Assembly: GCA_044236265.1 (NCBI GenBank) | Contig: JBIIGV010000038.1 | Coordinates: 1 to 23,910, forward strand | Direction: 5' to 3' | DNA: 23,910 nt | Source of the DNA: Oligoflexales bacterium | GTDB lineage: Bacteria; Bdellovibrionota_B; Oligoflexia; Oligoflexales; RGVZ01 | Shown: positions 9,286-23,542 of the stretch, piece after piece | Layout: each line of letters begins with the position of its first letter | Position numbering within the stretch: the first letter of the stretch is position 1 | Position numbers and translations under genes: made by a program | The notes under the pieces: model-generated | Told to the model about the DNA's origin: nothing | Database searches by the model: none | The model's input: the letters and a program-made list of their open reading frames with translations, nothing else

Positions 9286-9345
9286 CCGCCGCCCCTTGTG
9301 CCCTTAATATGTGAGACTTAGAACCAATAGTTGGACTTTTGGATC

Positions 9346-11106
9346 ATGCAGATTTTGGACAAAATCAAAGACTACGAAAGGCTTGGTAAGCCGTTCTTCT
9401 CATTTGAGTATTTCCCACCAAAGACCGAGACCGGACTCCATAACCTCTATTCGCGCCTCGACCGCATGGCTGGTCTTGAACCCTGTTTTATTGACATCAC
9501 ATGGGGCGCTGGCGGCAGCACATCTGAAACCACACTGACTTTAAGCAAAGACGCTCAAACCTATTTTGGTTTGGACGTCATGATGCATATCACCTGTGCC
9601 AATTTGAGTGAAACTCGTTTGCGGTCAGCTCTTGATCAGGCTCGTGATTGTGGCATCCGCAACATCATGGCACTGCGCGGCGATTCACCACGTAGCGATC
9701 GCCATGCTGAGCCTTCGTTTATTGAAACCAGCATTGATTTGATCAAATGGATTCGCAAAAACTATGGACAAACCTTCTGTATCGCAGTGGGCGGCTATCC
9801 TGAGGGGCATCCAGAGGCCAAATCAAAAGACGATTGCGTTGCGTATCTAAAGAAAAAAGTTGACGCCGGAGCCGACTTTGTAGTCACTCAGTTGTTTTAC
9901 GATGTGAGCGAGTACGACCAATTTCTGAAACGCTGTAAAAAGATCGGTATTCACTGCCCAATTATACCAGGCATCATGCCGATCATGTCTTACGAGCGCT
10001 TTCAAAAGTTTACTGAGTTTACGGGTATCAAAGTTCCAGAACATATTCGCCAAGCTCTTGAGCCAATAAAGACCGACGACGAAGAGGTTAGGGCTTTTGG
10101 CGTCGACCTTTGCGTGAAAATGGCTCGTGAATTATTTGAGCTAGGTGCTCCTGGACTTCATTTCTACACTCTCAATCTTGAGTCGTCTGTAACTGAGGTC
10201 CTCGAGAACTTGGACTTGTTAGGAGACTGTCGAACAAGGCGCCCGATGCCATGGCGTGCGTCTACAGTTGCAAATCGCAAGTCTGAGGAAGTACGACCAA
10301 TCTTTTGGAGTAATCGCCCGAAGAGCTATCTAGCACGCACACTGACTTGGGATGATTTCCCAAATGGTCGCTGGGGCGATAACTTTTCACCAACTTTCGG
10401 CTCGTTAAACGATTACTACATTTTCCGCAGAACCCAAGACACGGCTATGCGAGAAAATAGATTAAAAATTTGGGGCCAGCCTAAATCTGCAAATGATTTA
10501 GCTGAGGTATTTGCCAAATTTTGTCGCGGCGAAATTAAATGGCTCCCGTGGTGCGAGATGCCAATCCAGATTGAAACTGGCAGAATCGTCTCGCAACTCG
10601 TTGCAATCAACCTCAATGGCTATCTAACCATCAATAGCCAACCACAGGTCAATGCAGCACCAAGTGATGCTCCGGACGTGGGGTGGGGCGGCGCTGGCGG
10701 CTTTGTATTTCAAAAAGCCTATGTCGAGTTTTTCACGACCAAAGCCAAAATGCTTGAACTAATGGAGCGAGCCAAGAAGCTTCCATCCATCACCATTCAT
10801 GCCATCAACGAAAAGGGCGAAAGTTACTCCACGACAGACGACGCCAGCGTCAACGCTGTCACCTGGGGCGTATTCCCTGGTCGAGAAATCATCCAACCGA
10901 CCGTTGTCGACTCCAAAAGCTTTGCAATCTGGAAGGACGAGGCGTTTGACCTATGGTTGGACGAGTGGCGCTCTCTTTACTCCAAAAACAGCGAAAGTTG
11001 GAATTTTATTTCCAGCGTTCACGACGACTACTTCTTGGTCAACGTCGTTGAAAACGATTTTGTGAATGGGGATATCTACAGGCTATTTCCCTGCATTAAC
11101 TCTTAG
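9346..11106 (+). CDS. metF: methylenetetrahydrofolate reductase, eukaryote-type two-domain architecture (catalytic TIM barrel plus C-terminal SAM-binding regulatory domain)
   Basis: FSFEYFPPKT, DITWGAGG, ALRGD, GYPEGH, GADFVVTQLF, HFYTLN, then EEVRPIFW..RPKSY..RT..WDDFPNGRWG, TINSQP, FQKAY, NAVTWGVFPGREIIQPTVVD and WKDEAF as in eukaryotic MTHFR; alternative TTG start at 9331. Confidence 0.95.
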   Translation: MQILDKIKDYERLGKPFFSFEYFPPKTETGLHNLYSRLDRMAGLEPCFIDITWGAGGSTSETTLTLSKDAQTYFGLDVMMHITCANLSETRLRSALDQARDCGIRNIMALRGDSPRSDRHAEPSFIETSIDLIKWIRKNYGQTFCIAVGGYPEGHPEAKSKDDCVAYLKKKVDAGADFVVTQLFYDVSEYDQFLKRCKKIGIHCPIIPGIMPIMSYERFQKFTEFTGIKVPEHIRQALEPIKTDDEEVRAFGVDLCVKMARELFELGAPGLHFYTLNLESSVTEVLENLDLLGDCRTRRPMPWRASTVANRKSEEVRPIFWSNRPKSYLARTLTWDDFPNGRWGDNFSPTFGSLNDYYIFRRTQDTAMRENRLKIWGQPKSANDLAEVFAKFCRGEIKWLPWCEMPIQIETGRIVSQLVAINLNGYLTINSQPQVNAAPSDAPDVGWGGAGGFVFQKAYVEFFTTKAKMLELMERAKKLPSITIHAINEKGESYSTTDDASVNAVTWGVFPGREIIQPTVVDSKSFAIWKDEAFDLWLDEWRSLYSKNSESWNFISSVHDDYFLVNVVENDFVNGDIYRLFPCINS

Positions 11107-13967: not shown

Positions 13968-15902
13968 TTATAATCCAAACTTCTTCAAGGCGTCTTTCGC
14001 CTTGTTTTTGACATCATCCTGTAATTTTTTAGAGTCAGCTGATCCCTTTTCTTTGTAGGCCTTTTCAAGCTCTGCCTGCAGGTTTTTGAACTCGGTGTCT
14101 TTTCCTTGTAGCAAACTATTGAAGGCACTTTGAACTTTTGTGTACTCGGCCAAGAGTTTTCCACGCTCATCTTTGATGCGATCATCAACAAATGATTTGA
14201 GCTTTGCCCTGGCCTGATCAATCTTTTGCTTCAAGTGACGTTCCAGACCAGACGCAAGCTCTGTTCCGAGATTTGAATCCAGTCCAATCTTTGGATTAGT
14301 CAGACCACCTTCAAGGGTAACCTCCATTTCAAGGGCCTTTATCCGAGATGTCGCACTCGTCAAAGCCTCCTTCAAAATTGGTGACTTCGCATCAGTCTTA
14401 AAGGCAGGGCTGACAATCGTTTCTTTAATCTTGGCCTTAATCTCTGAACCGTCAAACTCGGCGTCAACGTTCAAACTGGCCGGTGCAGCTGCCACCCCAA
14501 ATGTGATATCTGAGCTTGAAGCAAACATTTGCTCAGGGAACGGATGAGCACCAACCGATAAATCGACATCCGTTGAACTTCTGTCGCCCTTGAAATCCAT
14601 GACAATCTGCAGGTCCGCTTTCTTGACCTCTTGCTTTGGCGCATCGCCAGATAGACGAACCTCGGTGGGTTTATTGATGAGCGATGCATCAGAAGACACG
14701 TTAAGAATCTTGCCGGCAAAATCGCCGGAGAAACCCTCTGGGGTTGATTTGCTGGATATCTCGGCCTTCTTTAGCCAGAACAGTGGATAGCCCACGGTCA
14801 CTGGAAACTTGTAGGTTCTGCCAGTTCCCCGAGGATGCGGAACAAACTCCGGCTCGTCTTTCTCCTTTTTGTCGGGCATGTAAGCTTTCGCTTTATCGAG
14901 GAACCCCGTCAGCTTAACGAGTTTGTCGCCCATAACTTTATTGAGTAATGCCTTTGAGATGCTGGTCTTATCGATGCTGGGTAACTGAAATCGATTTTGA
15001 AGTGCTTCCATATCCTTGCGTGCCGCATCATCGATCTCTTTCAAACTACTATTAAATCCAGAAACATCTTGCTGAATATCTTTCTGGCTCTTTTGGTAAG
15101 CCGCCACAATATCTTGGACCTTATTAATGTCTTTCTTTAATCCCTCTAATTGATTTTTTGCTTCCACTGGATTCGACGTATTGATCTTGGTCGCTTTTAC
15201 CTTCTCCACAATCGCCTTAACTTCGTCGGCCTTGGGCAAAGAATCGATTCGTTTAGTCCACTCGTCTTTTTTCGACGTTAACGTGGTTTGAAGCTCCTTA
15301 ATTTTCGCTTCACTCTGCAGCTGATCCCGAATTTGTTTTAGCTGATCAGTTGCATCAGCTCCTGAAAGAATATTAGCGATATCTCCAAACACATTGTTTT
15401 TGAGCTGAGCCTCAGCTTCAGCCTTCAATTCATTGCCAATTTTTTCTGTTAAGCCTGGACCTGAGGACTTACCTGGTGGCGGCGGTGGATAAATCTCTCC
15501 AGGGCTCTTTCTCGGAGAATAGAGCGCGATCTCTTTGATTGACGACTCATCGACAACAACTTTTGCCCGCAGCAAAGCATCCCAAAGAAGCGCCAGTCTG
15601 ATTTGACCAATCGACACGACATTTTGGCGTGGATTTGACTTATCAGTGACCTCAATACCGCCAATGGTCATGGACGGATCTGTAAATTTGATATTGAGCA
15701 TTCCGACATCGACCTGAGCGCCATACACTGAGGATGCTGCCAGCTCAAGCCCCCTTCGCACATGTCCATCCAGCATAGTTACAACGTAAAACCAAACCAA
15801 GGCGGCAAAAATTGCGATAGGTATAATCGCTTCGAGCCTAAGCGGCCCTTTAGCTTTTGGGGATTTACTCTTTTTTGCGTCCACTATTTTTTTGTCTGTC
15901 AT
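13968..15902 (-). CDS. TIGR03545 family protein (N-terminal membrane anchor, beta-rich and coiled-coil regions)
   Basis: Single N-terminal TM, GAQVD..., LLWDALLRAKVVVDE, GR.YKFP...YP.FWLKK, C-terminal helical KDALKKFGL; adjacent to a TIGR03546-like gene as is usual for the family. Confidence 0.75.
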   Translation of the reverse strand: MTDKKIVDAKKSKSPKAKGPLRLEAIIPIAIFAALVWFYVVTMLDGHVRRGLELAASSVYGAQVDVGMLNIKFTDPSMTIGGIEVTDKSNPRQNVVSIGQIRLALLWDALLRAKVVVDESSIKEIALYSPRKSPGEIYPPPPPGKSSGPGLTEKIGNELKAEAEAQLKNNVFGDIANILSGADATDQLKQIRDQLQSEAKIKELQTTLTSKKDEWTKRIDSLPKADEVKAIVEKVKATKINTSNPVEAKNQLEGLKKDINKVQDIVAAYQKSQKDIQQDVSGFNSSLKEIDDAARKDMEALQNRFQLPSIDKTSISKALLNKVMGDKLVKLTGFLDKAKAYMPDKKEKDEPEFVPHPRGTGRTYKFPVTVGYPLFWLKKAEISSKSTPEGFSGDFAGKILNVSSDASLINKPTEVRLSGDAPKQEVKKADLQIVMDFKGDRSSTDVDLSVGAHPFPEQMFASSSDITFGVAAAPASLNVDAEFDGSEIKAKIKETIVSPAFKTDAKSPILKEALTSATSRIKALEMEVTLEGGLTNPKIGLDSNLGTELASGLERHLKQKIDQARAKLKSFVDDRIKDERGKLLAEYTKVQSAFNSLLQGKDTEFKNLQAELEKAYKEKGSADSKKLQDDVKNKAKDALKKFGL

Positions 15903-15943
15903 GTCTTTGATCTCAATTCAAAGGTTACCGTTAGATTAAAAAA

Positions 15944-16471
15944 TCAGGATCCGTACATTTCGTTATAGCTGGCATACCACTTATAAAGGGACGTTGCCTT
16001 CAGCGCTTTCCAGAACTTGGTCTCCTGGTATCTCTGCACGATTGTTTCCCGGTACTTCACAATTAATACCCGAGACCCGAAGAAAATAATCGGCATCATT
16101 ACAATCGCCAAAACACCCGATCCCATCACAATTGAATTATTAAAGCGGGTCAGCGGAATAACTGGCATGTTGTACATCAAGGTAAAAATACCCCGTAAGG
16201 ACGGCTGCTCTAGAACCATAGCACCAACCGAGGCAAATGCAGGATCAAGAAGATAGGCTACAAATTTGAAAAAGAATGCGGCGAGAAATGCAGCTCCCGC
16301 TTGGACGCGAAATATCAAAATGAGCAGAAAAATTAAAAAAGATTGTAGTGACAAGACAGGCGACATTCCTAAAACAAATCCCGCGGCAACGCCCCATGCA
16401 ATTTGATTGGTTCCTGTCTCGGAATTGAGAAGTTTAATGAGCCCAAAAATTTGTTTAAGCAAAATAGTCAA
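15944..16471 (-). CDS. TIGR03546 family (DUF2062-like) membrane protein
   Basis: LNSETGTNQIAWGVAAG, LYNMP..PLTRFNNSIVMGS-type motif; TTG start after GAGAGAGG. Confidence 0.8.
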   Translation of the reverse strand: MTILLKQIFGLIKLLNSETGTNQIAWGVAAGFVLGMSPVLSLQSFLIFLLILIFRVQAGAAFLAAFFFKFVAYLLDPAFASVGAMVLEQPSLRGIFTLMYNMPVIPLTRFNNSIVMGSGVLAIVMMPIIFFGSRVLIVKYRETIVQRYQETKFWKALKATSLYKWYASYNEMYGS

Positions 16472-16635: not shown

Positions 16636-18357
16636 TTAGAGACGCTCAATTCGGATGATTCCGCGCTTGTTAAGAACCATCCTGAAATGATCATAAACAA
16701 CCTGTTTGTCACGACGATGCTGAAGGGAATGCCTCAAAACAATATGCATATGATAAACCTTGGGCAGCTTCAGCGAAGACAGTCGACCGTCGATGCTGAT
16801 GATATCAGTACCTGCCTGGGGGTCATCCAGTCGAGTTAAGTACCCGGCGATGTTTATGCGCAAAATATCATGCACCGCACGGATCGGATAATCCATGAGG
16901 CTGATTGCTCGCGGATAAAGTTCGACGACCTTTTTGTAATGAATGATGCTTTTAGGGGCGTCCTCAGCCTCTAGGTCGTCTGAATAGGATTGAATCCTTA
17001 GTTGTTTGACCTCAACAGGCAAGTCTTCTGGAGGTACAAAATGCGTATATTCGTTTACGTTGCCGACCTCAATCGCAGCTTCCGTTGCTGGTTCGTACAG
17101 AATACGTTCGCTGTTATCCGGAAGCTGACTAAATATTTTGCCAGAGAAAAAGCTTCTGCCGTTTTCCTTGATACGGTCTTTCAAGACGTAAGCAATCATC
17201 GACGCTGTTACGATCAGAAATCCACTTGATTGCCAGAAGTCAGTTTCGGCCGCCGCATTGCCACCCACGAACGCCCCTCCGCGAAGCGTAATGAAGTACA
17301 TCGCAATGACCCACCAAAGTGCGGCCAAACCGGCGGCAGCCATAGCACCAAGCTGACGCTGAAATTCGAATAGCGGCCTTGTTCGGATACTAAGATAAAG
17401 AACACCCCAGGTTCGCCTTTTCAAGACTCCTCGGCGATGCATATAACGCTCGACTTCATCGTCCGAACTGTCTTCGTCAATCCATGCATAACCGCGCTTT
17501 TTTGCGTACCATCGCTCCAGGCGATTTAAGGCTACACAACGCCTAAGGAACGCAAGATAATCTATTTCTGGAACAAGTCTAGGATCAATTTCAGTTGCAA
17601 CTCGCATCAAATTGGCAAGACCATCCCTCAGTCGATACGTGCAGTATTCATCTACAAATTTCAACTCGTTGACTAACGGTCGTAGATAGTCCTGATTTAA
17701 ACTTTCCGCTTCGATCAAAAGCTTTCGCCATTGCTTGAGCAGATATAGCGCTTTGCTCAAAAGCTCGCGTGTTTCATCGAGGTAGTGCTCAAGAGACTCG
17801 ACCCCCTTACCTCGCTCATCGTAAACCGTCGCGATATACTTATGAACTTTTCGAATTGCCTTTGTACGTTTGCCCATCCGCTTGAGAAAGTAGCTCGCAA
17901 ATGAGCAGCCGAAAATTCTAGCTTCTGAAATGGCCCGCTGAATTGTTACCGGAGGATGACCGTCAGCAACCTGCTTTACATAGTCCTCCAAAAACTTAAT
18001 CGGTGAGCGACTACCGCTTAATCCAATCAATTCACGAAACGAAAATCGCGGCTCACGAAAACGCACCAAAGGGCGCAAATCTGCGTAAAATCGATCTTTC
18101 GTATAGGTTTGTGGCGAGACAGCCATCTGCGGCGGATAGAAAAACCAAGCCTCCACCACATATTTTTGCTTGCGCGTTGCACCGGCAAGATTCGGGATCA
18201 CCGGGTAGTCGAACACCGTTTCTAGCTGTGTTCGATCGTGAGCTGCAAAAGTAGACTTAACCTGTAAATCCTCATCAACTGCTTTTGAACGCGACTTCCC
18301 TTTGCGAGGAAGCTCCGCTTCTTCAAATCTAGTTTTGGTTGTAGCTTTTGCGTACAT
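16636..18357 (-). CDS. conserved hypothetical protein, large soluble N-terminal region, two TM helices and a soluble C-terminal region
   Basis: 573-aa ORF; hydrophobic segments GAMAAAGLAALWWVIAMYFI and GFLIVTASMIAYVL followed by KDRIKE; no catalytic motif recognised. Confidence 0.8.
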   Translation of the reverse strand: MYAKATTKTRFEEAELPRKGKSRSKAVDEDLQVKSTFAAHDRTQLETVFDYPVIPNLAGATRKQKYVVEAWFFYPPQMAVSPQTYTKDRFYADLRPLVRFREPRFSFRELIGLSGSRSPIKFLEDYVKQVADGHPPVTIQRAISEARIFGCSFASYFLKRMGKRTKAIRKVHKYIATVYDERGKGVESLEHYLDETRELLSKALYLLKQWRKLLIEAESLNQDYLRPLVNELKFVDEYCTYRLRDGLANLMRVATEIDPRLVPEIDYLAFLRRCVALNRLERWYAKKRGYAWIDEDSSDDEVERYMHRRGVLKRRTWGVLYLSIRTRPLFEFQRQLGAMAAAGLAALWWVIAMYFITLRGGAFVGGNAAAETDFWQSSGFLIVTASMIAYVLKDRIKENGRSFFSGKIFSQLPDNSERILYEPATEAAIEVGNVNEYTHFVPPEDLPVEVKQLRIQSYSDDLEAEDAPKSIIHYKKVVELYPRAISLMDYPIRAVHDILRINIAGYLTRLDDPQAGTDIISIDGRLSSLKLPKVYHMHIVLRHSLQHRRDKQVVYDHFRMVLNKRGIIRIERL

Positions 18358-19142: not shown

Positions 19143-19856
19143 TTAGCGATTATAAGCGCCGTAGCGGATCGGACGGATCGCGTTATTACCTTCGACAGTC
19201 ACTTTACCGACAATGTAGTCGTCGCGGTCGGCTGCCGAGGAATCGGTATCTTTACCCCATCCCGAGGTCAGAAGAATCGAGTAAGCGCCCTTTTTGAGGG
19301 TCACATTGCTGGCAGATGCCGTTGGAGAATTTAGAGGAATATACTGCCCTTGCAAACGGCTCGTCAGTCCATATATCTCGAATGTGTTGGTCTGGTAGTC
19401 AACACCACAAATTTTTGCGACGTTGATATTGAGAGTCGTGTTGTCATTCAATACTTCAAATTGGAAGAAATAAGCTGTGCCGGTTAGGGGCAGCTGAGAA
19501 ATTTCGTCTTTGCATGATGTGTTTTGGAACCGTCCATCACCGATGTGGAAAACCTTGTCTTGACCGAAAACAATCGTGTTGGGGTTTGGTTGACTGATTT
19601 GATCAGCTGGACCTGTTTGTGGGTTTTGTCCATTAACTGGATTTTGACCGTTGGTATTTTGTCCAAAGGGATTTTGACCATTAGGATTCTGACCGTTTGG
19701 GCTCTGACCATTCGGATTCTGACCGTTTGTATTCTGATTCTGAGTGACAGTCTCTTTGCGTTTGGAGCTTCCCCCACCAAAGAAACTAGCATTTCCACAA
19801 GCCACGGAAACCAACATGGTTACCGTCGTCACTAACAACATATTTCGATTCAACAT
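19143..19856 (-). CDS. predicted lipoprotein with Q/N-rich pentapeptide repeat linker and beta-rich C-terminal domain
   Basis: ATG 19856 after GGAG; signal peptide ending LVSVA-C (lipobox-like); GQNPN repeats; Cys pair in the C-terminal domain. Confidence 0.75.
   Translation of the reverse strand: MLNRNMLLVTTVTMLVSVACGNASFFGGGSSKRKETVTQNQNTNGQNPNGQSPNGQNPNGQNPFGQNTNGQNPVNGQNPQTGPADQISQPNPNTIVFGQDKVFHIGDGRFQNTSCKDEISQLPLTGTAYFFQFEVLNDNTTLNINVAKICGVDYQTNTFEIYGLTSRLQGQYIPLNSPTASASNVTLKKGAYSILLTSGWGKDTDSSAADRDDYIVGKVTVEGNNAIRPIRYGAYNR
19617..19742 (-). repeat. degenerate 15-nt coding tandem repeat, about 7 x GQ(N/S)(P/T)x
   Basis: QNQNTN-GQNPN-GQSPN-GQNPN-GQNPF-GQNTN-GQNPVN-GQNPQ. Confidence 0.9.
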
Positions 19857-19947
19857 AAATACGCTCCACATCAACAGTTTTTCCGCTACAACATCAAAAT
19901 GAGCTCTTGAAAGCCCACCCCAGCAACTGGGACCACGACGCGAGAGC

Positions 19948-20031
19948 AGCACCTTTTATGCCACAACGATAAGGACCTGTTTTCAGTAACTTAGCGGGTA
20001 TTTCTGCCCCCCACTGTCAGAATATTTGACA
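19948..20031 (-). promoter_or_regulatory. putative sigma54 promoter with IHF-like site and upstream palindrome
   Basis: TGGCATAAAAGGTGCT (GG-N10-GC, 19963-19948); TTTCAGTAACTTA (19981-19993) resembles IHF WATCAANNNNTTR; TGTCA-N7-TGACA (20015-20031). Confidence 0.55.
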
Positions 20032-20097: not shown

Positions 20098-20763
20098 ATG
20101 CAAATGAATACTGTTTTCAAGAACAACCACTTTGTCGTCGTTAACAAGCCGGCAGGCACCCTAAGCACACCTTCGCGGATGGGCCGAACAGACCCACGTC
20201 CTGTTATTGGCATATTGCTGCAACAGAATCTCGGACAAAAGATATATCCGGTTCATCGCTTAGACGAGGAGGTCTCAGGACTTTTACTGTTTGCCTTGAA
20301 TGATTCCGCTCACAAGGCAGCCAATCGCTGGTTTGAGCTACACGAGGTCAGGAAAACCTATGAGGCGATTTCAGTTGTTCCATCAATAGGGCCCCCCTTC
20401 AAACCAGGAGAGGTCAACATATGGAAAAGCAAACTGATGCGTGGAAAAAAAAGAGCTTACGAGGCGGATTATGGCAAAGAATCTGTAACCAAGTCAAAAC
20501 TGGTGACATTCGATGCAAATCGATCCATCTGGCATTTGCAACCGCTGACCGGGAGGTCGCATCAGCTGCGCTATGAAATGTCCAAGCACGGCTATCCCAT
20601 CAATGGAGATGGCCTTTATGGTTCGGCTCATCCACATCAAGAAGACGGGTCAATTGCTTTGAGGGCTGTGCATCTAGATTTCTCGGCGGCAAACCAGCAC
20701 GGAGATTTTGGCCTACCGACCGCACTGTCACTGAAATCCATCGAACCGATTACTTTGATGTAA
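20098..20763 (+). CDS. RluA family RNA pseudouridine synthase
   Basis: VVNKPAG, VHRLDEEVSG (catalytic Asp), KTYEA, TGRSHQLR, GDGLYG. Confidence 0.93.
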   Translation: MQMNTVFKNNHFVVVNKPAGTLSTPSRMGRTDPRPVIGILLQQNLGQKIYPVHRLDEEVSGLLLFALNDSAHKAANRWFELHEVRKTYEAISVVPSIGPPFKPGEVNIWKSKLMRGKKRAYEADYGKESVTKSKLVTFDANRSIWHLQPLTGRSHQLRYEMSKHGYPINGDGLYGSAHPHQEDGSIALRAVHLDFSAANQHGDFGLPTALSLKSIEPITLM

Positions 20764-20768
20764 CAAAG

Positions 20769-22046
20769 TTAGTGGCTGAGTAAAGCTTCTGAAGCCTCAA
20801 AGGATCTTGATCCGAGGGCCTGCACAGGCCTTGCATTTTGCCCCACCTTTGAGCGTAACTGAGCTAGTTGAGACGCAGACACCTCAACTGAATGGTCCAA
20901 CACATACCACGATACACCCTCTGTACAAGGCGGCATGGTCAATGACCCTTCATACTTATAGTGATCAAACGTTGCAGGCAAAAGATCACGGGCACTTACC
21001 TGATTAACGACCGGTGGAGCCTCCGCCGGCAGCGAGAATTGAGAAATAATTTTATCAAACTCTTTGTGAGATGCTCCAATTTCAACAAATACGCCTAAAA
21101 TAGCGACCCTTCCGCTCGGACTTTCCAGGTAAAGCTGCATTTCCATCGGGTAGCTAAATCCATTGATCTGATGCTCACTTGGACTGTGAAATACAGTCTT
21201 CTTGACAGCATAAGTTTCACCATTGAGAGATGCCTTACTCCGCCCAGACCAGCTCACTTCGCCAGATGGACGTTTACGATCGACAGCCATGGTCTCCGAG
21301 GCCCACTTAAATCGAATCGCATTTTTGGATTTCGCGGCTTTACGTGGAATGTCGATCGGTGACTGCCATTTACCCGAGCCACACTTCGAAAACTCCGCGC
21401 TTAAAGATCCCCAATTTGAAGGACCAGTGGCACCATCGTAAGACCAAGGTTTCGGCTGCTTATCAATAGGCTCAGAATATTTGGTGGTTAAACTCTTTGC
21501 TGCCATGCCTGCAAACCACTGCGCACGTTCAGTTGAGACTCCGGCTATTGGATCACCGGAAAAATCCTCACCCATAACGGCTGATTGATGAATCCATTCA
21601 TGACTGGAACGCCAGCTCACACTAAGCAGCATAAGAACTGAGACAAAAGCGAAAAAACATCCAACCAATGGCAGACCAAAGCGCCTATAGACCAGTAAAA
21701 TATAAATCACTGCTGAACAGCTGAAGCTCAGTAAGTGAGAGGAATAAGCTAAGCCTGCCACCTCAATTTCAACGATGGAAAACACGAAATAAGCTGCGAG
21801 ACCCCAAAGTAAAGCTATCAGTCCATCAACAAAAGAGCTAACTCGGGAGGATTCGTGCTCAGACCGCAATGCCAAAAATCTGAAAAAACCAAACGAAAAA
21901 GCAAGTCCAACTAGTAGCAGCCAAACACCGAAGGGTGTTGCCCCTGCAACAAAGGTATGATGAAGGAAAATTGCAACTGAAATAGGAATGAGTGCTACCA
22001 ACGCAAAAACCCGCGGATGAACTGCCAGGTGCTCGGCGCGCTCCAT
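20769..22046 (-). CDS. multi-pass membrane protein fused to an alpha-carbonic anhydrase-like domain, probably non-catalytic
   Basis: About 5 N-terminal TM helices; WSY.G..GP..WG, C..G..QSPIDI, FHSPSEH, YEGSLTMPPCTEGVSW, NARPVQ; start uncertain (ATG 22046 after GAAGGG, or upstream ATGs). Confidence 0.85.
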   Translation of the reverse strand: MERAEHLAVHPRVFALVALIPISVAIFLHHTFVAGATPFGVWLLLVGLAFSFGFFRFLALRSEHESSRVSSFVDGLIALLWGLAAYFVFSIVEIEVAGLAYSSHLLSFSCSAVIYILLVYRRFGLPLVGCFFAFVSVLMLLSVSWRSSHEWIHQSAVMGEDFSGDPIAGVSTERAQWFAGMAAKSLTTKYSEPIDKQPKPWSYDGATGPSNWGSLSAEFSKCGSGKWQSPIDIPRKAAKSKNAIRFKWASETMAVDRKRPSGEVSWSGRSKASLNGETYAVKKTVFHSPSEHQINGFSYPMEMQLYLESPSGRVAILGVFVEIGASHKEFDKIISQFSLPAEAPPVVNQVSARDLLPATFDHYKYEGSLTMPPCTEGVSWYVLDHSVEVSASQLAQLRSKVGQNARPVQALGSRSFEASEALLSH

Positions 22047-22135
22047 GGTCCCTTCGCTCTTTGTATGTGTCTTACGCATCAAATTTATCATCCCCGTAGG
22101 GGCAGACCCTGGTGGCCTACCGAAAAACCTCAATT

Positions 22136-22162
22136 ATTTCGGCCAGCCGCTGATTTGCTTTA
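22136..22162 (-). promoter_or_regulatory. putative sigma28 (FliA)-type promoter of the CA-like gene
   Basis: - strand TAAA-N15-GCCGAAAT versus consensus TAAA-N15-GCCGATAA, with exact spacing. Confidence 0.55.
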
Positions 22163-22255
22163 GACCAAACCTGTTATTACCCTGGATTTATGGGGAAAAT
22201 TCTTATAACTTTGGAGTTATCCCAATGCTGATAACCCCCTGATCCGAGATGCATA

Positions 22256-23542
22256 ATGTCTAATTTGTCTGAAATTGATTCGACGCTCATTTTGCAAACC
22301 TTCTTAGTACTGCGAATCATCCAATACGCAGTTGAGACGTGGCTCGCGAGAAAAAATCGCGAGTGGTGGGGAGACAAATCCCGTCAGGACCAAGCAGCGA
22401 AAGCCCTGGGCATCTCAGCAGCTGACATGGAAAAAACGTCTCAATACTCTGAAGCAAAGTACGGGCTATCACGCGCTTACGCCGTTACGACTATCATCAT
22501 CTCAACACTTTTCTTCGCACTCGGCGGTTTGGGTATCACAGAAAAAGTTTCTGCGGACCTGACGACAGGGATCAATGGAGGCGTGATTGCTGAAGGGCTT
22601 ATATTTATCGGTCTGCTGACGCTTATGAGTCAAATCGTAAGTCTTCCGTTCAGCCTGTACGGCACGTTCGTGATTGAAGAAAAATTCGGTTACAACAAGC
22701 AAACCATAAAGGGATTTATTTCTGATCTCCTCAAGGGAACCGTACTCGCGGTGCTGCTAGGGTCTGGCATTCTCTCTCTCGTTTTATGGATCATGGGCAC
22801 CATGGGTTCTCTCTGGTGGCTGTACGCTTGGGCTGCTCTATCTGTGTTTAGTCTTTTCACCGCTTGGATATACCCAACGCTGCTCGCTCCCATTTTTAAC
22901 AAATTTACACCCCTGGCAGATGGCGAGCTGAAAGATCAAATAAACGCGTTGGCACAAAAAATCGGTTTTCGTACTGATGGACTTTTCGTGATGGATGCCT
23001 CGAAACGCTCCGGTCACGGCAATGCTTATTTCACAGGCGTCTTCGGCAAGAAAAGAATTGTGCTCTTCGACACGCTGCTGTCGAGCATGTCAAATCACGA
23101 GGTCGTCGCGGTCTTGGCGCACGAATTGGGACACTTCAAACTCCACCATGTAAGAACCGGAATGATTCGGGGGCTTGTCATTTCACTTCTTATCTTTGCA
23201 GGAATCGGAGCGATGCTACCCAACTCGAACTTTTACCAGGCATTTGAGCTAACAAAAGTTAGCCATTATGCCGGGCTTGTTATTTTTTCACTCTGGTTTG
23301 GCCTCATTGAATTCTACCTGCAACCAATTCAAACCTGGTTTTCCCGCAAAAACGAGTTTGCTGCCGATGAATTTGCTAAGACAACTCTTGGAACTGGAAG
23401 CCCACTGGTCGAAGCACTAAAAAAGCTAAGAGAAAAAAGCAGCGTAATGCCGATTGCTCACCCGCTATTTTCTGCGATGTATTATAGCCACCCACCCATG
23501 CTTGAGCGTATTGCAGCACTGCAGGCGAGCGAGCCTCGATAG
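22256..23542 (+). CDS. M48A family zinc metalloprotease (Ste24/CAAX prenyl protease-like)
   Basis: FVIEEKFGYNK, PIFNKF.PL, SKRSGHGNAYFTG, KRIVLFDTL, HELGH, SRKNEFAAD, SHPP..ERI. Confidence 0.94.
   Translation: MSNLSEIDSTLILQTFLVLRIIQYAVETWLARKNREWWGDKSRQDQAAKALGISAADMEKTSQYSEAKYGLSRAYAVTTIIISTLFFALGGLGITEKVSADLTTGINGGVIAEGLIFIGLLTLMSQIVSLPFSLYGTFVIEEKFGYNKQTIKGFISDLLKGTVLAVLLGSGILSLVLWIMGTMGSLWWLYAWAALSVFSLFTAWIYPTLLAPIFNKFTPLADGELKDQINALAQKIGFRTDGLFVMDASKRSGHGNAYFTGVFGKKRIVLFDTLLSSMSNHEVVAVLAHELGHFKLHHVRTGMIRGLVISLLIFAGIGAMLPNSNFYQAFELTKVSHYAGLVIFSLWFGLIEFYLQPIQTWFSRKNEFAADEFAKTTLGTGSPLVEALKKLREKSSVMPIAHPLFSAMYYSHPPMLERIAALQASEPR

Follow-up and report, generated by a model that had tools for sequence, protein, structure and literature searches.

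The window (the whole 23,910-nucleotide stretch of an Oligoflexales contig that was analysed) encodes a protein in which a five-helix membrane module is followed by an alpha-carbonic anhydrase (CA) domain whose fold is kept by selection while its catalytic cavity has drifted. We infer, with a probability of about one half, that this protein, here called 5TM-CA, is a membrane-anchored periplasmic docking module of the CARP type, its CA fold binding through the outer surface. The five helices, with the N-terminus inside and the C-terminus outside, would hold the disulfide-bonded domain in the periplasm as part of an inner-membrane protein, which would descend from an active 5TM-alpha-CA of the same order. 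In the 16-member clade to which the protein belongs, His119 would have changed to Gln first, after which His94, His64 and residues of the CO2 pocket would have drifted; because of these changes catalytic zinc binding and CO2 hydration are most likely absent, and the loss of activity, taken by itself, can be held with high confidence. Selection would have kept the folded module for docking to a putative cell-envelope partner, and the helices would act mainly as an anchor. The features on which this reading is built are collected in Table 1.

Table 1. Features of the 5TM-CA gene and its neighbours in the window (residue names follow the active-site numbering of alpha-CAs)
Feature	Position	Strand	Basis or remark
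Whole gene, 5TM + alpha-CA-like protein	20769..22079	-	436 aa from ATG 22079; 425 aa from ATG 22046; P0002 has 436 aa; upstream start also in P0131
Five-helix membrane module	21570..22016	-	Residues 11-159 of the 425-aa form; models, conservation, charge by loop
Linker, low-confidence, probably flexible	21456..21569	-	pLDDT < 50 at residues 162-191
Alpha-CA-fold domain without complete zinc site	20772..21455	-	PDB sequence, Pfam and Foldseek matches
His94 position, Val (GTA)	21192..21194	-	PDB alignment, codon reading
His96 position, His (CAC), kept	21186..21188	-	Codon reading
His119 position, Gln (CAG)	21135..21137	-	PDB alignment, codon reading
Val121 (CO2 pocket) position, Tyr	21129..21131	-	Codon reading, family alignment
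His64 (proton shuttle) position, Pro	21267..21269	-	Codon reading, family alignment
First Cys of conserved disulfide pair	21381..21383	-	Cys in 78/79 family rows
Second Cys (TPPC motif)	20925..20927	-	Cys in 79/79 family rows
RluA-family pseudouridine synthase, convergent neighbour (synteny marker only)	20098..20763	+	NCBIfam, Pfam, locus comparison
M48 (CAAX/Ste24-type) membrane peptidase, divergent neighbour (synteny marker only)	22256..23542	+	Pfam, locus comparison

The open reading frame, on the minus strand, terminates in a stop codon at 20769-20771 and stays open upstream to 22133, with zero internal stops. A first-pass annotation, made from the letters of the window, had placed the gene at 20769..22046; its frame is indeed intact, but the start is probably ATG 22079 rather than 22046, because P0131, a relative of 86% identity, keeps the extra 11 residues and because two of the four sequencing runs compared (X9 and X11) have GTG in place of the ATG at 22046. 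PF00194 is the sole Pfam family in the protein (residues 208-416, 115 bits versus a cut-off of 27), and the best PDB sequence matches are bacterial alpha-CAs (E 4e-40). The AlphaFold model, built from a 45-row alignment, has a mean pLDDT of 84 and places N-terminal helices at residues 11-34, 39-60, 67-92, 98-123 and 125-159 ahead of a well-folded CA domain, in agreement with the about five transmembrane helices that had been noted before. Superposition on a bacterial enzyme, which had been proposed as a check, gave a close fit of the CA domain to 4coq_B (Foldseek TM 0.88 over the target, rmsd 2.2, 35% identity, E 1e-22). The N-tail is of about 20 residues and the protein ends with the CA domain, so that, with a single Pfam family present, a cytoplasmic output domain is absent. 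In the otherwise variable linker of relatives a short Leu/Phe-Ser-Ala-Lys-like motif recurs, located at about 21490-21510 in the window.

The Val and Gln codons that the first-pass annotation had read at the His94 and His119 positions were found at the same places, as were GSLTMPPC, in which Thr199 is kept and Thr200 is Met, and the retained disulfide Cys pair; the annotation had also noted the NNGH shuttle motif as absent, and Pro is found at 64 and Lys at Asn62. Further changes in the cavity are Lys at Gln92 and Ile at Val143, and the residues kept include Glu106, Glu117, Leu198, Thr199, Trp209 and both Cys. Compared with an active alpha-CA, the zinc triad thus reads Val/His/Gln and neither His64 nor the Val121/Val143 pocket is preserved, with Glu106/Thr199 and the Cys pair in place. 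The His94/His96/Gln119 site of the eta class is not formed either, Val being at 94. CARPs are a class with a CA fold that lacks one or more of the zinc His and is inactive, according to the accessible text of PMC5437132; two such His are absent here, from an intact CA fold under purifying selection. Among human CA II mutants, the greatest loss of zinc affinity comes from H94A, as given in the accessible part of PMC10175565.

An assembly error is ruled out. Val/His/Gln is common to P0003 and P0131, run X2, which comes from a different study, matches the window over 20700-22176 with 0 differences, and none of the strain variants listed falls at codons 94, 96 or 119. The cluster of the exact protein counts 7 members, and ten runs hold at least half of the region's words, nearly all of them labelled lake or fresh water and one being a possible source; no RNA run is among the runs listed as holding these words. 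The four runs compared with the window have zero indels and 68 differences, of which 40 are listed, 37 of them within the 425-codon frame. In the CA domain the listed variants divide into 17 synonymous and 10 non-synonymous ones, giving a pN/pS of 0.17 (p 9.5e-6 versus neutrality) that rests on part of the data, since it derives from 40 of the 68 differences. For the orthologue pair of genomes G001 and G005, both with Phe/His/Gln, dN/dS is 0.16, and both ratios fall inside the range of intact controls (0.03-0.19 for unsaturated pairs); the comparison of G000 with G008 was saturated. The CA domain is also more constrained than the membrane module, with 210/228 versus 125/160 identical residues against P0003 and 127/226 versus 46/160 against P0004. 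Selection thus keeps the fold of the window's CA domain, and strain-specific decay is ruled out by the pN/pS of 0.17 and by a 16-member clade without any intact triad.

That clade emerged from a tree in which 79 rows represent the family and 9 the outgroup, with SH-aLRT branch supports. His94/96/119 is intact in 41 family rows and altered in 38, a distribution that needs 11 changes on the tree; when the trait columns were dropped it still needed 11, whereas 200 shuffles averaged 26.9 and never fell below 18. The window's gene sits in the 16-row clade (SH-aLRT 97), which is sister to three intact rows, and in this tree, from which animal CARPs are absent, it nests among bacterial 5TM-CAs rather than by descent from animal CARPs. 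Position 119 is only ever His or Gln across the family, and His/His/Gln occurs in four rows, three of them in the clade, which suggests that His119Gln preceded the other changes at the zinc site; such changes would mostly have gone via this substitution. The ancestor of the family was probably active and, since about half of the family keeps His94/96/119, the 5TM-CA architecture as such is not a pseudoenzyme design. Conservation of the Val/Gln pair had been put forward as a test: Gln119 and Val94 do recur in the 86%-identical relative, but Val is not fixed as the substitute for His94, at least six different residues occupying this position within the clade. Orthologues with all three His, which the first-pass annotation would have read as a sign of strain-specific decay, do exist (the syntenic genes of G002 and G011, among the 41/79 intact family rows), and the loss is nevertheless old and clade-wide.

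Among the 38 altered members, E106, H107, E117, G196, S197, T199, P201, P202, C203 and W209 are present in 38/38 and H96 in 35/38, and positions 62, 64, 65, 67, 92, 94, 121 and 200, near-fixed in the 41 intact members, vary. As many columns of the CA domain are kept at 85% or more in the 16-member clade as in the intact set (55 in each), and the clade has intact frames at a mean CA identity of 43.5%. With shuttle, second-shell and pocket positions all free and the core invariant, these patterns argue for a true loss of catalysis and disfavour a single ligand conserved in the cavity. When alpha-CA domains were scored across the order, in 76 genomes, 53 of 106 were altered, Gln119 being present in 47 of these 53, and 28 of the 76 genomes have no intact alpha-CA among the copies found; as half of the scored domains are without a full zinc site, an annotation as 'carbonic anhydrase' is doubtful in this order. 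In a comparison set, from which 7 loci of the 5TM-CA family and 3 unscored rows were set aside, 4/74 scored domains are altered; the search pattern biases this set, and related genomes do not count as independent in such comparisons. G000 has, at another locus, an alpha-CA that is intact, and it has two matches to beta-CAs. Compensation by a paralogue was rejected as a rule: G001, G003 and G005 are altered with no intact alpha-CA found, and G002 and G011 have two intact ones (these genomes being incomplete).

The nearest known relatives are the alpha-CAs of Thermovibrio (4coq/4c3t), Persephonella (6im0) and Neisseria (1kop), members of PF00194 that share with the window's protein the fold, the disulfide pair, E106/T199 and the SPIDI, PSEH and GSLTxPPC motifs. 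Bacterial periplasmic alpha-CAs usually carry an export signal; the window's protein has the five-helix module instead, is without His94, His119 and His64, and has a remodelled CO2 pocket. Animal CARPs VIII, X and XI (Gln is at position 119 in X and XI) and the CA-like domains of PTPRG and PTPRZ, extracytoplasmic in these receptors, likewise combine an alpha-CA fold with an incomplete His triad, a fold that we propose to be kept here, too, for a non-catalytic role. The relationship is distant (E 8e-14 with PTPRG 3jxh versus 4e-40 with bacterial CAs), and in contrast to PTPRG/PTPRZ, which have a cytoplasmic phosphatase output domain, the window's protein has a polytopic anchor and no output domain. 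The closest parallel with assay results is TgCA_RP of Toxoplasma gondii, which, as described in the accessible text of PMC5437132, is membrane-tethered, has a hydrophobic residue at 94, His96 and Gln119, keeps E106/T199 and has lost His64. With its Phe/His/Gln triad, a combination also found in the G001 and G005 orthologues, it was inactive in assays. Unlike the window's protein, TgCA_RP is eukaryotic, GPI-anchored and eta-class-like, whereas the loss in the window's protein arose in a bacterial family with intact sisters.

The topology of the membrane module was deduced from charge. In 81 non-redundant modules the mean number of K+R is 3.3 in loop 2, 1.7 in loop 4 and 1.7 in the N-tail, versus 0.85 in loop 1 and 0.48 in loop 3, which would put the N-terminus inside, the C-terminus outside and the CA domain in the periplasm, as also fits its disulfide pair. 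Most relatives keep a P / W-R / W signature in the module; the F-W-R-R that marks the family behind helix 2 has eroded in the window's protein, W-R being lost. The orthologues of G007, G008 and G012 have lost helices 1-4 and keep only the last one, with the peptidase gene so near that there is little space for further helices. Searches with the module gave no Pfam family matching more than 2/23 members at E 0.1, no family in NCBIfam or, by profile, in the PDB, no Foldseek match with E <= 0.001, and no usable match, or one at 0.76, in the ESM Atlas; the best VIA hits, at Z 11.5, were generic helical bundles (about 13 being the level noted as meaningful). This lack of matches is no proof of a new fold. 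A homodimer prediction for the module, with a score of 0.00, speaks neither for nor against a dimer.

Docking is preferred because the cavity drifts while the fold is kept, because a cytoplasmic output domain is absent and because three orthologues manage with the last helix. Some observations pull the other way. Fold stability by itself could explain the conserved columns, the kept E106, T199, L198 and W209 would also fit binding of a small anion, and the signature kept in most relatives goes beyond the needs of a plain anchor. The wider inference of the first-pass annotation, a conserved, probably periplasmic and non-catalytic CA domain on a polytopic module, is upheld, but its suggestion of a sensor or transporter role is without direct support, given the missing output domain, the lack of conserved charged residues in the helix cores and the loss of helices 1-4 in three orthologues.

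One alternative, which we regard as unlikely, is that the dead CA domain serves transport as a 'proton antenna', speeding proton exchange without catalysis beside an H+-coupled transporter or the protein's own helix bundle. CARPs VIII, X and XI of human origin raise MCT1 transport non-catalytically, according to the accessible portion of PMC6609565, many relatives have long His/Glu-rich linkers, and an EamA transporter gene adjoins a separate, single-helix group of dead paralogues in 9/17 loci. However, the linker of the window's protein is short with few His, its CA domain is not acidic (25 K/R versus 22 D/E), a co-oriented transporter gene is absent at the locus, and alignment of the family modules found no conserved D/E/K/R in the helix cores, making the module improbable as a conduit.

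Slightly more doubtful is the idea that the whole family is an envelope receptor or accessory whose ancestral job was non-catalytic, the CA domain reading periplasmic bicarbonate or binding an envelope ligand and being coupled to some membrane machine via the five-helix module with its conserved P, W-R and W. One candidate would be the elongation machinery: rodA is close to the 5TM-CA gene at 14 of 21 loci in family f15, where mreC, PBP2, rodA and purC usually precede it on the same strand. If this were true, catalysis would be a dispensable extra that was lost about ten times, and the order a hot spot of bacterial CARP evolution.

Doubtful to a greater degree is a CO2/bicarbonate sensor in the manner of PTPRG, in which the metal-free cavity would bind HCO3- and the helices relay a signal to a membrane partner. 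The His-deficient CA-like domain of PTPRG has been proposed as an HCO3- sensor (accessible text of PMC7541084), every altered member has E106, T199 and W209, and V143I stabilises bound bicarbonate in CA II (accessible text of PMC12205326), with Ile143 present in the window's protein and 8/16 clade members. Such a relay is hard to reconcile with a protein lacking a cytoplasmic domain (none of 61 module-bearing proteins scanned had a second Pfam domain over cut-off), with a cavity lining that varies across the clade, with a linker modelled as disordered, or with the loss of helices 1-4 in three orthologues and of W-R in the window's protein.

It is very improbable that the domain is still an enzyme, one whose unusual, eta-class-like metal site would combine His96 and Gln119 with a stand-in ligand, for instance Tyr121 or water. 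The eta-CA of Plasmodium (His/His/Gln) is active with Gln at 119, as reported in the accessible part of PMC5437132, and position 119 in our family is never other than His or Gln; but the window's protein, unlike the Plasmodium enzyme, has also lost His94, and His/His/Gln is found in only 4/79 family rows. Val94 cannot ligate metal, Tyr121 is present in only 4/16 clade members, the shuttle and pocket residues were released together, and TgCA_RP with Phe/His/Gln is inactive. Nor did the alignment of the 16-member clade reveal a conserved substitute zinc ligand, which the first-pass annotation had named as a result that would speak against its reading.

Slow decay of the gene once CA activity had become dispensable has the smallest chance of all and is already largely refuted, for although altered lineages have long branches, three orthologues have lost helices 1-4, the start of the CA domain is strongly eroded in G010 and neither G004 nor G009 yielded the gene, frames are intact across the diverged clade, both substitution ratios lie within those of intact controls and four runs have zero indels.

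The 5TM-CA family was delimited with a module-only profile run over 1.84 billion representatives. It matched 62 proteins, of which 51 carry a CA domain behind the module; the other 11, of 99-361 aa, are mostly fragment-like, and one of them matches an ORF running off its contig. All three positions are present in 50 module proteins, as His/His/His in 22 and in altered form in 28. A 17-row module profile matched 28 of 130 genomes of the phylum, with one copy each, namely 7/12 other genomes of the window's genus, 21/22 of family f15 and none elsewhere; these absences are soft, because the profile missed G000's own module, in which the W-R signature is lost. The family thus comprises two lineages within a single order, for which source labels (P0095, L134, L186) point to Oligoflexales, the depositor labels of other top records being in conflict. 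A metagenome scan gave two generic CAs only. In G010 an ORF (L129 1350-2099) that runs off the contig end has the module intact ahead of its eroded CA domain.

The first-pass annotation had not recognised this architecture as described. Searches of the full-text literature, whose reach excludes most subscription papers, gave no description of a bacterial alpha-class CARP or of a polytopic bacterial alpha-CA, and look-ups starting from the sequence and from its relatives gave nothing either; the accessible parts of PMC10880623 and PMC13367328 add nothing on this question. CARPs are known from animals, viruses and an apicomplexan (accessible text of PMC5437132, 2017). CARPs as a kind are known already; what appears to be new is the architecture with five helices, the matching of active with dead orthologues and the rate of loss seen across the order. 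One bacterial family offers active and dead orthologues at the same locus and repeated losses, with His119Gln followed by His94 in a route as in Toxoplasma, so that the role of dead CA domains becomes testable in a small bacterial protein.

The gene context gives weak functional hints. In the genus the 5TM-CA gene lies between the RluA synthase and the M48 peptidase and adjoins one or both in 11/13 genomes; of these copies, those of G002 and G011 are intact, eight are altered and the one in G010 is interrupted by the end of its contig. Neither neighbour is co-oriented with the window's gene, and they offer no functional hint. In family f15, motAB is nearby at 13 loci, often facing the 5TM-CA gene (L073-L092, L124), a context that is absent in the window's genus. 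A promoter and terminator scan at the window's gene stayed at chance level.

Other CA paralogues were encountered as well. The EamA-associated single-anchor group (L045, L050 and L053-L060 in the genus; L061 and L064-L068 in the family) is uniformly zinc-deficient, often with Arg96 and Gln119, and is under strong purifying selection (dN/dS 0.05-0.08). An intact paralogue (L001 946-2175; relatives L033-L041) has a long His-rich low-complexity linker before its CA domain, and in this group the triad is lost in G003 and G009 (Asp/His/Gln and Asn/His/Gln). Of the alpha-CA ORFs of the genus, 20/32 end in His, mostly as xAH/xSH (for example G000:C174:6539-7192, locus L001), versus 83/2062 long ORFs in G000, and a third paralogue group ends mostly in SNR; such endings possibly form a C-terminal motif. 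Elsewhere in the window, a lipoprotein-like ORF of 269 aa (19143-19952, minus strand), which has imperfect GQNP repeats and matches no Pfam/NCBIfam family, is syntenic genus-wide, and a 573-aa protein without a Pfam family (16636-18357, minus strand) is kept at the locus across the genus. Further along are a TIGR03545/TIGR03546 gene pair, both over cut-off (13968-16471, minus strand), and a 591-aa ORF (9331-11106, plus strand), which we take to resemble the long eukaryote-type methylenetetrahydrofolate reductase with a C-terminal extension.
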